Assembly (NCBI RefSeq): GCF_006345805.1
Contig: NC_042999.1
Location: 105,400,001-105,464,000, forward strand
Length of the DNA: 64,000 bases
Direction of reading: 5' to 3'
Source of the DNA: Octopus sinensis
Taxonomy: Eukaryota
Shown here in pieces: positions 15,584-43,389 of this stretch (positions are counted from its first letter, which is position 1; each line of letters opens with the position of its first letter). Under the pieces are notes generated by a model. It made no database searches and was not told the origin of the DNA. It worked only from the letters and a program-made list of their open reading frames with translations. A program made the position numbers and the translations under genes.

Positions 15584-17392
15584 AAGAAAAGTCAAGGTAG
15601 AAAATACTAAAATAATTTTATGAAAAAGCTTTTGAGTACCGGTTTCAGCCTTTCAGACTTTTTCAACTGTAAGTATAGAAAACAATTAAATTTTGAAAAA
15701 ATTAAAAAGGATTTTTTTAAAGAATATTTGCATAGTATTCAAATACAATGGGCATTTTCCTTGTTTCTGCCTGTCTCTGTCTCTCTTGCTTACTCTTGTG
15801 GATTCGAGGTCGTTGTGAATTCTTGGCAGAGAAGGAGAAGAAGAAGAAGAAGAAGGAAGGGAAGAAAAAGAAGGGGGAGAAGAAGAAAAATGCGGGAGTG
15901 CGATGATAGTAGTAGGACGTTCAATGGTCAAGTTCCCTAAAAGTGACTTGTTGTGGCTGGTAGTAGTGATTGAATTCTTGAGACATCTCTGTTGAATGTA
16001 TTGTTTATAAAATTTGCGTTGGTGTTATTCTCAACGACAATAGTGGTGAAGTTAGGAAGGATGTGGCGGAGAGGAAGAACACGAAGAAGAAGGAGAAAGA
16101 TAAGGGAGAATAAGAAAGGAATGCATGGGGTATGATAGTAGTAGGATGTTAAATTGTCAAGTAACAACAAGTGGCTCTGTATGGATTATAGCAGTGATTG
16201 GGACTGTTTTTAAATGAATTCTTGGGAATCTCTTGAGTGTATCATTTTTAATATTTGCTTGTGTGTTTGTGTTATTCTAAGGCCGTGGTAGTTATGTCGT
16301 TTGTTGTAGATGCGTTCAAAACGGGTCTGTATTTTGTAATAAGCAGAATCTCTTTACCAATTCGTTGGCTACAGGTTGTATCGTCCCTGAATTGGCAGGG
16401 GAAAATTCTGAAGTTTGGATTTTTGTCGTTGGCGCAAATGTCAACGTGTTGGCCGAATGCAATTTTTCTGTTTTGGGAGATTTTGATGTCTGAGTTCGTG
16501 GATGTTGAGTTGAAGAGCACGTTGAAAGCATATGTCAATTAGTGAAGGTGGGTCGTTCCTGGTGATGAGTGTAACAACCAAAGGGGCTGATAAAGGAAGT
16601 GCAGTTGTCTTAATGGACACGGTATTCTCTATAACTCTAGTACTATCCATATTAGAAGTCACAACATATGAAAAAAGCCCAAAACTACAGTCAGCAGAAA
16701 ATAATGAGATACTGTTTTTTGTTTTGCCAATGTATTGCTCTTGACATCCAGATCAGGTTCGTGCGTATATCAGGTTCTTCGAAGCACATGTGAAGCTGCT
16801 TTTCACTGTGAAACGTTGTCCCTATTTGAAGGAGAACTCTGATCCCTCAATTAAATTGTCGCATATCCCACAGTGGGATCTTCCGCATTGTCTTACTGAT
16901 GGCTTCTGTGTTGTTGAGCGTATTCGGGCTTGTGTTAGGAGACTTTTCATAGATATGGGTTGTATCTTGCTTTTTACGATGGTGTGTGTTTGGAGGATTA
17001 AGTTAATTATGTGGTCCTTTTTTTAGCAGGGCAATGTTTTGAAGGAGACTTCATTGTATCGGAGACTTTATTGTTAAGAGGTTTGTGTGTGGATATGTAT
17101 GGTAAGGCTTTTGGCTGTAAATCCTTCTTTAATTTGGGATGTCTGAGTTCGTGGATGTTGAGTTGAAGGGCACGTTGTATGCATATGTCAATTAGTGAAG
17201 GTCGGTCGTTCCTGGTGATGAGTGTAACAACCAAAGGGGCTGATAAAGGAAGTGCAGTTGTCTTAATGCACACGGTATTCTCTATAACCCTAGTACTATC
17301 CATATTAGAAGTCACAACATATGAAAAAAGCCCAAAACTACAGTCAGCAGAAAATAATGAGAGACCTAAAATCCATAATAAACCTATACTTA
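15584..17392 (-). mobile_element. Rearranged, 5'-truncated Penelope-like element (Neptune-type)
   Basis: Minus strand: RT-thumb end (RNDRPSLIDIC..ALPYISTHKPLN), Cys linker CGRSHCGIC, GIY-YIG FTCASKNLIYA..SGCQEQYIGKTK (16709-16905), EN C-terminus KEILLITKYRPVLN (~16315), then a 3' UTR with an HHR. Plus strand: RT N-terminal motif KGADKGSAVVLM at ~16575 and ~17230. Confidence 0.9.
15628..15673 (-). ncRNA. Hammerhead-like motif with U3-A8 core in the PLE 3' terminus
   Basis: AG UUGAAAA AGUCU-GAA-AGGCU GAAA CCGG UA CU. Helix II is 5 bp, helix III ACCGGU is palindromic, helix I is short. Confidence 0.65.
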
Positions 17393-17429
17393 ATATATAT
17401 ATATATATATATATATATCATCGTTTTGT

Positions 17430-18172
17430 GCTATCTATAATTTTCTAATTTCTTGTCCGTTTGAATAGGAAAGTCTCACAAAATCATACATTTCTTCGAT
17501 TCCAGTAATCTTTCGACCCGATGATTGTACTATATGTTTCCAGCTTCAAATCTCCATTTACAGCAGAGTTTGCAGTGTATAACTTTTACAGCCTGGTCAT
17601 CCCTCCCTTTCCTATATTCTTTCTGTGCTAAATTGGGGTATTCTGTCACAATATATGCCACTGTCTTGTTCCAAATTCCACAGGCTCTACATTTTTCTGA
17701 CACACTCTCTCCACACATTTTTTTCAAAGTTGTTTGCTTTTATCGTTTGGGCTTGGGCTGTTACAATTAGGCTCTCAGTTTCTTTCTTTTAATTGACCCT
17801 ATATCAATCCAGCGCTGGAGTTTGCTCCGCATACTTCTTCAGTGAATCTCCTAACTTGGCCATGCAGAGTTTTCTCTTCAATCAGTCTGATATGCTCACT
17901 TTGTATTTCATTCTTGTCCTTTTACCCTTTTACGCGCTTCATCACCTTTTATTTAGTAGCTTTCTGTAAATAATCTTTTAGACTTTTTCTTTACATCTGT
18001 ATATATTTTACTCCTGCTATTAAGCCTCTTCCACCTGGGTCTCTCCTCAAGTACAGCCGGTTGATATCAGCTTTCGGATGGTGGGCTCCATACATAGTCA
18101 ACAACTTCCTAGATTTTCTATCAAGTTTCTCTATATCGTTTCTGGTCAAGTGTAAAATTCCAACTATTATCA
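17430..18172 (-). mobile_element. R4/Dong-like non-LTR retrotransposon fragment
   Basis: KLDRKSRKLLTMYGAHHPKADINRLYLRRDPGGRGL and CRACG..TVAYIV..PNLAQKEYRK.RDDQAVKVIHCKLC (CCHC/RHD region of RLE-type elements). Confidence 0.85.
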
Positions 18173-18181
18173 TTATTATTA

Positions 18182-18762
18182 AGGCGGTGAGCTGCCAGAA
18201 TCGTTAGCACGCCACTCAAAATGCTTAGCGGTATTTCGTCTGCCGTTACGTACTGAGTTCAAATTCCGCGAGGTCGACTTTGCCTTTCATCTTCTCGGGG
18301 TCGATAAATTATGTACCAGTTACGCACTGGTGTCGTTTAATCGACTTAATCCGTTTGTCTGTCCTTGTTTGTCCCGTCTGTGTTTAGCCCCTTGTGGGTA
18401 GTAAAGAAATAAAAATAGGTATTTCGTCTGCCGCTACATTCTGAGTTCACATTCCCCCGAGGTCGACTTTGCCTTTCATCATCTCGGGCTCGATTAAATA
18501 AGTACCAGTTACGGACTGAGGTCGATATAATCGACTTAATCCGTTTGTCTGTCCTTGTTTGTCCCCTCTATGTTTAGTCCCTTGTGAGCAATAAAAAAAT
18601 AGGTATTTTGAATGCCGTTACGTTCTGTGGTCGACTTTGCTTTCATCCTTTCGGGGTCGATTAAATAAGTACCACTGAGGCAATGAGAGCGATGTAATCG
18701 ACTTATTCGCCTTGTTTGTCCACTCTATGTTTAATCTCCTGTGCAAAGTAAAGAAATAAATA
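18182..18762 (+). mobile_element. SINE family B: one head plus three tandem ~185-bp body units
   Basis: Head GGCGGTGAGCTGCCAGAATCGTTAGC. Units start GGTATTT at ~18230, ~18418 and ~18602, each with GTCGACTTTGCCTTTCATC..CGGGGTCGAT..AGTACCA. Confidence 0.85.
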
Positions 18763-18904
18763 TTTGTTAATGTTTGGATGGCGGGGATTTTGAAGATATC
18801 TAACTTGTGTATCACTCTGGGTTAAACGAAGTAAAGGATCTTTTCCCTTGCAACAGCAGATCGAGAAATAATTTTTTGTGATTAAACATTTTCACATTTC
18901 GGAC

Positions 18905-19156
18905 ACTGCTACTACTACTACTACTACTACTACTACTACTACTACTACTACTACTACTGCTGCCGCTGCTGCTGCTGCTGCTGCTGCTGCTGCTTCTACT
19001 GCTGCTTCTACTGCTGCTGCTGCTACTACTACTACTACTACTACTACTACTACTACTACTACTACTACTACCACCACCACCACCACTACTACTACTACTA
19101 CTACTACTACTACTACTACTACTACTACTACTACTACTACTACTACTACTACTACC
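18905..19156. repeat. Compound trinucleotide microsatellite (CTA)n(CTG)n(CTA)n(CCA)n(CTA)n
   Basis: Directly visible. It explains the poly-S/T/V ORFs. Confidence 0.97.
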
Positions 19157-42204: not shown

Positions 42205-42285
42205 TTCCCTATGGCCATTTCAAGGGTACATTACTGTATTTATAGCACTAGGGTGCATCTCAATAATAACTCCTTGGTCAGGGGA
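42205..42285 (-). ncRNA. Type I hammerhead, left-arm copy (G8 to C)
   Basis: UCCC CUGACCA AGG...CCUU GAAA UGGCCA UA GGGAA. Helix III AUGGCCAU is palindromic. Confidence 0.7.
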
Positions 42286-42316
42286 CGGTACGTGATGATG
42301 TCTGTCTCTCTATTGT

Positions 42317-42398
42317 TTCCCCTGACGAAGGAGTTATTATTGTGATGCACCCTAGTGTTTTAAATACAGTAATGTACCCATGAAATAGCCATAGGGAA
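42317..42398 (+). ncRNA. Type I hammerhead, right-arm copy, intact core
   Basis: UUCCC CUGACGA...GAAA UAGCCA UA GGGAA. Helix I UUCCC/GGGAA, extended helix II includes AUUAUUG/CAGUAAU. Predicted cleavage after AUA (42393). Confidence 0.8.
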
Positions 42399-42769
42399 TG
42401 TAAATATGGCTTCTTTTTTGCTTGGACGCTGGTTTTTAACTATAGGTTTCTTTTATATGAAAAGTAATTTTTAAAAGATTTTCTAAACGATGAACTTTAT
42501 TTTTACATTATATATTATATATTACTTATTTATATGCTTCCTATATATATATTTATATATTTTTATATACCTATATTACTTTATACTATATTACTTTATA
42601 TTACATTATACTATATTTATATTATATTTATATTAATTTATACTATATTTTTATGTATTTATTTTCTAGGTGTTGTAATGTTTTTTTAAAAAATATATAT
42701 TTTTTAATCGCTAAAGTATTAACATTAAGCGTGATGAACCAATAATTAACGCAACCAAACTTCCACATG

Positions 42770-42814
42770 TTACTTTTGACAATCTTTTTCCAAAGAGTGA
42801 AACCGGTAAAGTAA
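42770..42814 (+). ncRNA. Type I hammerhead-like motif with U3-A8 core
   Basis: UUACUU UUGACAA UCUUUUUCCAAAGAGU GAAA CCGG UA AAGUAA followed by AAUAAA. Helix I is 6 bp, helix III is ACCGGU. Confidence 0.7.
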
Positions 42815-43344
42815 ATAAACATCTTTTAAATGGCATTTTCAAAACTTCTTTCGTATATAATTCAACTATATATATATATATATAGTGGAATTATATACGA
42901 AAGAAGGTTTGAAAATGGCATTATATATGTATATTATATACTATATATTATAATATATATATATATATATATATATATGTGTGTATATATATATATATAT
43001 ATGTATATATATATATATGTGTGTGTATATATATATATATGTATATATATTATGTATATATATATATATGTATATATATGTGTATATATATATATATGTA
43101 TATATATATATATGTATATATATATATATATATGTATATATATATGTGTATATATATATGTGTATTATATATATATATATATATTATATATATATATATG
43201 GTATATATTATATATATATATATATATATATAATATCTATATATATATATACTATATATATATAACAAGTGGAGTTGTGGGGTACCGCACGAGTGGAATT
43301 ATATACGAAAGAAGGTTTGAAGATGCAATTTAAAAGATGTTTAT

Positions 43345-43389
43345 TTACTTTACCGGTTTCACTCTTTGGAAAAACATTGTCAAAAGTAA
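43345..43389 (-). ncRNA. Inverted copy of the U3-A8 hammerhead-like motif
   Basis: Lies in 43292-43422, the reverse complement of 42737-42867. The two arms enclose ~420 bp of mostly TA microsatellite. Confidence 0.68.

Follow-up and report, generated by a model that had tools for sequence, protein, structure and literature searches.

The question raised by a 64,000-nt window of the Octopus sinensis genome (NC_042999.1; the window is the whole stretch of DNA analysed, and all positions are numbered in it) is why three hammerhead-like motifs in it carry U3 and A8 where the usual CUGANGA core has C3 and G8, and whether this core has been kept by selection on catalysis. The motifs belong to two repeat families, F1 (the family of site 1) and F2 (the family of sites 2 and 3). 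We hold with good confidence that F1 and F2 are high-copy non-coding families sharing with autonomous Penelope-like elements (PLEs) a 3' module, which is composed of a minimal type I hammerhead with U3-A8, a GCATTTTC box and a (TA)n end; U3-A8 was most likely inherited, and self-cleavage is predicted only as a dimer or with the help of a protein. The copies, motifs and boxes in the window are as follows.

15561..15814, minus strand: old copy of repeat family F1 (read as non-coding, PLE-related; blastn to the genomic F1 copy L025, 88.7% identity over 257 nt)
15631..15672, minus strand: hammerhead-like motif of the F1 copy, site 1 (sequence, descriptor scan)
Site 1, 5' half, minus strand: helix I 5' strand 15672-15667; core U3UGAAA8A 15666-15660; helix II AGUC-UGAAA-GGCU 15659-15647
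Site 1, 3' half, minus strand: GAAA 15646-15643; loop CCGG 15642-15639; U16.1 15638; A17 15637; helix I 3' strand 15636-15631
15600..15607, minus strand: F1 3' box (GTATTTTC in the window copy, GCATTTTC in the family; near-invariant columns of alignment A1)
42737..42867, plus strand: F2 left arm, truncated at its 5' end (97.7% identical to a genomic F2 copy; the matches of other copies begin at query position 18, which is 42737)
42770..42814, plus strand: hammerhead-like motif of the F2 left arm, site 2 (descriptor scan; identical to the family form)
Site 2, 5' half, plus strand: helix I UUACUU 42770-42775; core U3UGACA8A 42776-42782; helix II region U-CUUUU-UCCA-AAGAG-U 42783-42798
Site 2, 3' half, plus strand: GAAACCGGU 42799-42807 (GAAA 42799-42802, CCGG 42803-42806, U 42807); A17 42808; helix I AAGUAA 42809-42814
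42833..42840, plus strand: left-arm 3' box GCATTTTC (sequence, alignment A1)
43244..43760, minus strand: F2 right arm, longer copy with the CCACTCGTGCGG tail (96.5% identity over 518 nt)
43345..43389, minus strand: hammerhead-like motif of the right arm, site 3 (descriptor scan)
Site 3 parts, minus strand: core 43383-43377; helix II region 43376-43361; GAAACCGGU 43360-43352; A17 43351; helix I 3' strand 43350-43345
43319..43326, minus strand: right-arm 3' box, here GCATCTTC (sequence, alignment A1)

The three U3-A8 cores were present where an earlier note on this DNA had placed them, with UUGAAAA and UUGACAA replacing CUGANGA, and sequence inspection and a descriptor scan found the hairpin, GAAA, ACCGGU and A17 after each of them. 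The invariant core (U4, G5, A6, N7 and A9; G12, A13 and A14; A15.1-U16.1; H17) was retained in all three window copies, and the 3-8 tertiary pair took the form of an isosteric U3-A8 rather than C-G in both F1 and F2. Helix III is short and has a palindromic loop, A-CCGG-U in the window copies and ACAUGU, AGCGCU or AGUACU in related elements; GAAACCGGT with at most one mismatch occurred 12 times in the window, against 4.33 expected. On the minus strand, site 1 has ...cuuacag before the UUGAAAA core and cucaaa... after A17. Sites 2 and 3 form an inverted repeat, with 131-nt arms (42737-42867 and 43292-43422) that are 96% complementary and separated by 424 nt, mostly (TA)n. The core at 43377-43383, reported earlier as a copy of that at 42776-42782, does belong to the same element, but as the other arm of this inverted repeat on the minus strand and not as a direct copy. 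Helix I of site 2 is a clean 6 bp (UUACUU/AAGUAA) and helix II has 5 bp, whereas the right arm has a private C-to-G change in helix II at 43375. The window copies are dead insertions, site 1 being worn and site 2 near the family form.

Searches over the window's own 2.7-Gb genome yielded 1284 first-look candidates for F1, of which the 40 scored aligned with the window copy at 88-92% identity along all or most of the 131-nt query, and 1199 candidates for F2, with 98% identity and the match starting at window position 42737. TTGAAAA was found in 28 of 30 distinct F1-type copies (the remaining two had CTGAAAA and an inserted A, respectively) and TTGACAA in 40/40 F2-type copies, both samples consisting of the best matches to the window copies rather than of random draws. 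U3 and A8 are thus fixed family-wide, indicating that they are not copy-specific mutations of CUGANGA; the family-consensus check proposed in the earlier note was borne out, and no CUGANGA consensus was found. A protein-like open reading frame (ORF) was not seen in the longer F2 locus L037, and the window contained 99 stop-to-stop frames of at least 90 aa, the longest of 184 aa, judged by length without a Pfam scan; both families were read as non-coding.

Two other forms of the F1 core were considered and set aside. An alternative register (CUGAUGA then AAA) was limited to stray copies (L090, L125 and one more) and is not the family state, and CUGAAGA was carried by two copies (L123, L124), the number that double mutation among thousands would yield. 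The CCGG loop of helix III was often CTGG or CCAG in many F1 copies (L003, L006, L007, L013, L016, L024, L027 and L029), a CpG-decay pattern which suggests germ-line methylation of these repeats.

The relation of both families to PLEs emerged from the autonomous elements of the same genome. A Pfam GIY-YIG search gave 5029 candidates, with 147 matches among the 150 scored and open frames of up to 883 aa, and the three long ORFs scanned had RVT_1 and, C-terminal to it, GIY-YIG, an arrangement canonical for EN+ PLEs. The strict hammerhead descriptor matched on the ORF strand in 16 of 30 GIY-YIG loci, starting 0.4-1.2 kb past the GIY-YIG match. U3-A8 hammerheads were located 0.6-1.2 kb downstream of ORFs encoding both RVT_1 and GIY-YIG. 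Fourteen of these hammerheads were UUGAUAA GGUUC...GAAC(C/U) GAAA CAUG U, that is, U3-A8 with G10.1-C11.1 and the palindromic helix III ACAUGU; the remaining two were one U3-A8 with helix III AGCGCU and one C3-G8 with AGUACU (U3-A8 in 15/30 loci in total, C3-G8 in 1/30). Several of the other 14 loci had mutated or short-helix versions.

Downstream of the hammerhead, the PLE ends had GC(A/G)TTTTC(A/G)AACTTC after about 40-50 nt, then a T-rich stretch and then (TA)n, some of them also with CCCACTCGTATACGA. The layout of F1 and F2 is a hammerhead, the GCATTTTC box 28 nt (F1) or 24 nt (F2) later and a TA-rich microsatellite, with UGAAACCGGUA common to both families. A GC[AG]TTTTC box 24-50 nt downstream of the hammerhead was therefore a feature of F1, F2 and the PLE 3' ends alike, and the whole series of hammerhead, box, TA-rich end and optional CCACTCGT tail was common to F1/F2 and the 3' ends of elements encoding reverse transcriptase (RT) and GIY-YIG. 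In alignment A1, made of 12 sequences (window copies, family members and PLE ends) with a mean identity of 49%, the columns identical in 12/12 included U4, A6, A9, G12, A13, A14, A15.1 and the 3' box, and G5 was kept in at least 90%. Judged by sequence, F1 and F2 are not the unrelated families that they had been taken for, given the core, GC[AG]TTTTC box and (TA)n end that they share with the genome's own PLEs, and this common module makes it most likely that U3-A8 was inherited once, and not acquired through two independent double changes. Both were read as non-autonomous relatives of the PLE 3' end, which the PLE enzyme would copy. Short, very abundant non-coding repeats tied to PLEs in this way would offer a concrete candidate for the sequence recognised by that enzyme.

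The genome-wide state of the 3-8 pair was surveyed with the pattern xUGANyA...GAAACCGGU and the fixed tail GAAACCGGT, using the reversed pattern as control. The spacer was 9-22 nt, or 8-22 nt for A-U, G-C and A.A. The seven states listed below were included, and the counts are structured by family and do not represent independent events.

U-A, TTGANAA, exact pattern TTGANAAN{9,22}GAAACCGGT: 9959 hits, 89 in the control
C-G, CTGANGA: 167 hits, 36 in the control
C.A, CTGANAA: 289 hits, 58 in the control
U.G, TTGANGA: 315 hits, 51 in the control
A-U, ATGANTA: 1581 hits, 301 in the control
G-C, GTGANCA: 144 hits, 58 in the control
A.A, ATGANAA: 214 hits, 317 in the control

Among motifs with helix III ACCGGU, U3-A8 exceeded C3-G8 about 60-fold, so that its supposed rarity does not extend to this genome. 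The U-A matches comprised many families, whose helices I and II differ yet stay complementary. Compensatory changes were observed at 10.1-11.1 of helix II, which is A-U in F1 (AGUC/GACU) and G-C in a GGUC/GACC family, and in helix I, which is ACAG/CUGA in F1, ACUU/AAGU in F2 and AGAAAU/AUUUCU and others elsewhere; further U-A families had the helix I strands AAGAAAU/AUUUCUU, GAGAAAU/AUUUCUC and UUUUACUU/AAGUGAAU. Two A-U families were recognised. The first, AUGAAUA GC-GAUA-GC, combines helix I (G)UAUC/GAUA(C) with the 3' box of F1/F2, and was also found by eye downstream of the GIY-YIG match in L149, where the strict scan drops it for a helix II of only 2 bp; the second, AUGAUUA GUAAUUCUAC, includes a same-strand array with 576-bp spacing, and its scaffold is reused by the G-C matches (GUGAUCA GUAAUUUUAC). 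Most C-G matches belonged to a single repeat, CUGACGA GAGG...CCUC GAAACCGGU C, with a spacing of about 352-360 bp. The GAGG...CCUC scaffold occurred in three states, namely C3-G8, C3.A8 (CUGACAA, in tandem, L177/L178) and U3-A8 (UUGACAA, L109/L110), with variants in which G.U pairs of helix I had become A-U. The A.A matches were scattered single variants without an amplified family.

That all four Watson-Crick states were amplified and A.A was not supports selection on the 3-8 pair. Within the Penelope-linked families, U-A amounts to about 10^4 copies, A-U to about 1300 above control (including the 576-bp tandem array and a PLE 3' end), and C-G and G-C to about 100 each, on shared scaffolds. 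We incline, if only somewhat, to the interpretation that in this one animal genome the 3-8 pair stands in all four Watson-Crick states within amplified Penelope-linked families, with A.A unenriched, and that catalysis, not just sequence, has been selected in the master copies of PLEs and of their non-coding dependants. Function would also be argued for by the core positions kept across very diverged families, taken together with the compensatory changes in helices I and II, at 10.1-11.1 and in the 3-8 pair. The earlier note had inferred selection from a double change in two families; that change is best read as inherited once, while the constraint on the 3-8 pair stands and is better argued from the genome-wide matrix. 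If the interpretation is true, the four-state series would be the fullest natural covariation record for this pair. The genome also constitutes a natural mutagenesis series (U-A, A-U, C-G, G-C, U.G and C.A on related scaffolds), usable to ask whether PLE hammerheads have been selected for cutting.

Three groups of loci in this survey had peculiarities of their own. The A3-U8 families were located at L161 (G000:C1:150622500-150624400), L162-L170, L180 and L149, and the 576-bp array among them has G at position 17. The C3.A8 subfamily (L177, L178; G000:C2:103182067-103182336 and C2:202631500-202632500) presents a CpG-type G-to-A change. In the families TTGAGAAATTTGAAAAG... (L099-L102, L130), a 9-nt tandem duplication (GAAATTTGA twice) created two nested UUGA.AA cores; of the two, helix I is better for the inner one, with 7 bp (GAGAAAU/AUUUCUC).

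F2 copies began at scattered points, from -5 to beyond -520 as counted from the predicted cut (36 rows, including two row pairs from the overlapping loci L190/L202; L203 and L205 gave none), and the CCACTCGTGCGG tail was present in 19/40 copies. Head-to-head and tail-to-tail inverted copies, same-strand arrays and (TA)n ends were all found among F1 and F2 copies; the same-strand F2 arrays had a spacing of about 264-281 bp, 600-bp palindromic units also occurred, and most copies were single or inverted. The insertion signature published for PLEs consists of 5' truncation, inverted or tandem copies, a (TA)n bias and an optional 30-40-bp tail (Craig 2021, PMC8557442; PMC11167929), and it is matched by the variable 5' truncation, inverted pairs, (TA)n junctions and optional tail of F1/F2. 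At L198 (G000:C2:6936907-6940001), four same-strand F2 copies about 264-281 bp apart have an identical internal start after a (ACATTACATATA)-like spacer, which looks like a tandem array from one event. At L038 (G000:C8:8522929-8526052), inverted F2 arms (232 nt, 94% complementary, with 59 nt of (TA)n between them) alternate in an array with a period of 600 bp, and an internal direct repeat of 89 nt lies upstream of the part with the hammerhead.

As a mechanism, we propose that F1 and F2 may be non-autonomous elements copied by the PLE RT, which would recognise the 3' box. Helix III has one pair, a single A-U, and its palindromic CCGG loop could pair with that of a second copy, the dimer being the active form in the way proposed for type I hammerheads of metazoans; or else folding could be assisted by the PLE protein. 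Cleavage would then act on master transcripts, for example by trimming read-through or tandem RNA. A type I hammerhead with a tiny helix III has been described as inactive alone and active as a dimer (PMC4209133), and a protein-assisted hammerhead has been described in one PLE (PMC11167929).

Several results weigh against a functional motif. The folds of the window copies were no more stable than those of shuffled sequences (z 0.01 to 0.41), and the F1 copy of the window did not adopt the motif when folded; its helix I is degraded to 2 pairs, 2 mismatches and 2 pairs, the family form being 3 pairs, an A.A mismatch and 2 pairs, with a helix II of 4 bp. Hammerheads usually have the pair G10.1-C11.1, whereas helix II of F2 is flanked by U and U, leaving either a U.U mismatch or two bulges at 10.1/11.1. 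None of the 36 F2 rows starts at the predicted cut and all of them extend upstream across it, indicating that the templates were uncleaved. Amplified C3.A8 (L177/L178) and U3.G8 subfamilies exist, so that strict 3-8 pairing was not needed to spread, and the presence of the C3.A8 repeat in tandem indicates that even a mismatched core was amplified. PLE min-hammerheads had low activity in vitro (PMC4209133), and hammerhead cleavage was dispensable for PLE insertion in vitro (PMC11167929).

The copying of F2 through the predicted cut, the spread of the C.A and U.G subfamilies and the weak helices with z-scores near 0 would all be expected if the motif were a conserved 3' recognition structure for the PLE RT, or a relic, whose core is kept for protein binding and no longer cleaves. 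This explanation also agrees with the published lack of effect of hammerhead mutants on PLE insertion in vitro and of RNA-seq ends at the cut in Anolis (PMC11167929), as well as with the suggestion that hammerheads may simply parasitise PLEs (Craig 2021, PMC8557442). We nevertheless consider it unlikely: outside the hammerhead tertiary fold the 3-8 pair has no importance, yet it covaries over all four Watson-Crick states, with A.A at or below control; hammerhead core positions and the 3' box make up most of the columns that are invariant in A1 (12/12); and H17 is never part of a pair.

Rfam and assembled contigs were also considered. None of the Rfam hammerhead models had a match in the window at the gathering score, nor one at E<=10 around the sites. 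When 10 loci were scanned as a control, the genome's canonical C3-G8 repeat was missed as well, with best hammerhead scores of 26 and 19.7 bits where the gathering score is 52, so that the Rfam failure is weak or no evidence either way. As had been anticipated, searches based on CUGANGA, and Rfam too, miss these motifs; such descriptors overlook nearly all the hammerhead-like motifs of this genome. Contig ends at 43350 (X1, X2), adjoining the predicted cut 43351|43350, were rejected as evidence of cleavage: ends recur at many further positions (among them 43401, 43467, 43394 and 43329), the contigs are Logan contigs, the 24 runs being only guessed to be RNA, and position 43351 (H17) differs from copy to copy, enough in itself to break an assembly graph.

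It is very improbable that two unrelated families each gained C3-to-U and G8-to-A independently under selection for catalysis. Helices I and II do differ between F1 and F2, as such an origin would have it, but the two share UGAAACCGGUA, the box at 24-28 nt and the TA-rich end, autonomous PLEs carry the same module with U3-A8, and intermediate families link F1 with F2. Scarcely credible is a foldback or MITE-type DNA transposon with the inverted arms as its terminal inverted repeats and an accidental likeness to hammerheads, since, although arms of 131-232 nt with 94-97% complementarity surround (TA)n, their outer ends vary by copy (and differ between the window arms, 42737 vs beyond 43760), single-arm and tandem copies exist, and the 3' module is common to RT-encoding elements.

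With inheritance from PLEs as the preferred origin, comparison was made with known systems. The tertiary Watson-Crick pairing of C3 with G8 and its natural U3-A8 covariation, both affirmed in the earlier note, are in print (PMC3088659; PMC4209133), and the U3-A8 change itself is not new. Natural covariants were reported in 2011, such variants being already known to be active in vitro (Perreault 2011, PMC3088659); they present the same compensatory change of the tertiary pair, but in scattered examples of other types and hosts, unlike the octopus retroelement lineage with its thousands of copies. In Schistosoma, Cervera and de la Pena (2014, PMC4209133) described U3-A8 in PLE min-hammerheads; of about 1300 matches, many were solitary or lay on opposite strands at a distance of 100-700 bp. 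The octopus motifs resemble the U3-A8 Cercyon min-hammerheads of Schistosoma mansoni in having U3-A8 for C3-G8, a tiny palindromic helix III and an extra nucleotide by helix II, and PLE min-hammerheads in general in being mostly single or in opposite-strand pairs 100-700 bp apart, in their high variety per genome and in their position near PLE ends (PMC4209133). In contrast to the elements described there, the majority of the octopus motifs are U3-A8 (ACCGGU alone accounts for about 10^4 copies), this state occurs both in autonomous elements and in short non-coding families, it is accompanied by A3-U8 and G3-C8 families, and helix II of F2 is flanked by an unpaired U on either side.

Metazoan retrozymes have been proposed to be mobilised by PLEs (Cervera and de la Pena 2020, PMC7229834). 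As in the metazoan non-LTR (long terminal repeat) retrozymes of that paper, F1 and F2 are non-coding low-GC repeats with a type I hammerhead that coexist with PLEs, and some F2 copies form same-strand arrays (~270 bp); unlike the tandem 170-400-nt units of retrozymes, which are expressed as circular RNA, most F1/F2 copies are single, 5'-truncated or inverted, and the core is U3-A8. No paper naming natural A3-U8 or G3-C8 hammerheads was found in a literature search that had subscription journals outside its reach. Exchanges of the 3-8 pair were reportedly studied in vitro in 2007.

The remaining features around the F1 and F2 copies are two microsatellites and a short fragment.

15506..15585, no strand: (ATAC)n microsatellite, adjoining the 3' end of the F1 copy
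42884..42917, minus strand: short F2 3'-end fragment in inverted orientation (34 nt, 100% identity; direct repeat D8)
42923..43265, no strand: (TA)n/(TG)n microsatellite between the F2 arms

Canonical hammerheads occur in the same genome, in the CUGACGA repeat and in a pair at 3310/3403 of the window, and they agree with F1/F2 in helix III (ACCGGU) or else in architecture (helix II flanked by U, tetraloop palindromic), as well as in forming inverted pairs and tandems. Unlike F1 and F2, they keep C3-G8, the state that is about 60 times rarer with the same helix III. The window pair lies in another PLE 3' end, present as head-to-head inverted copies at 3085-3348 (minus strand) and 3365-3641 (plus strand) with 80-82% identity to the 3' region of the GIY-YIG locus L134. 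The hammerhead of each copy, CUGAAGA U-UGCA...UGCA-U GAAA GUAC U A, begins at 3310 on the minus strand and at 3403 on the plus strand; its helix I has 5 bp, and its helix II is flanked by U as in F2. A third fragment was located at 44741-44879.

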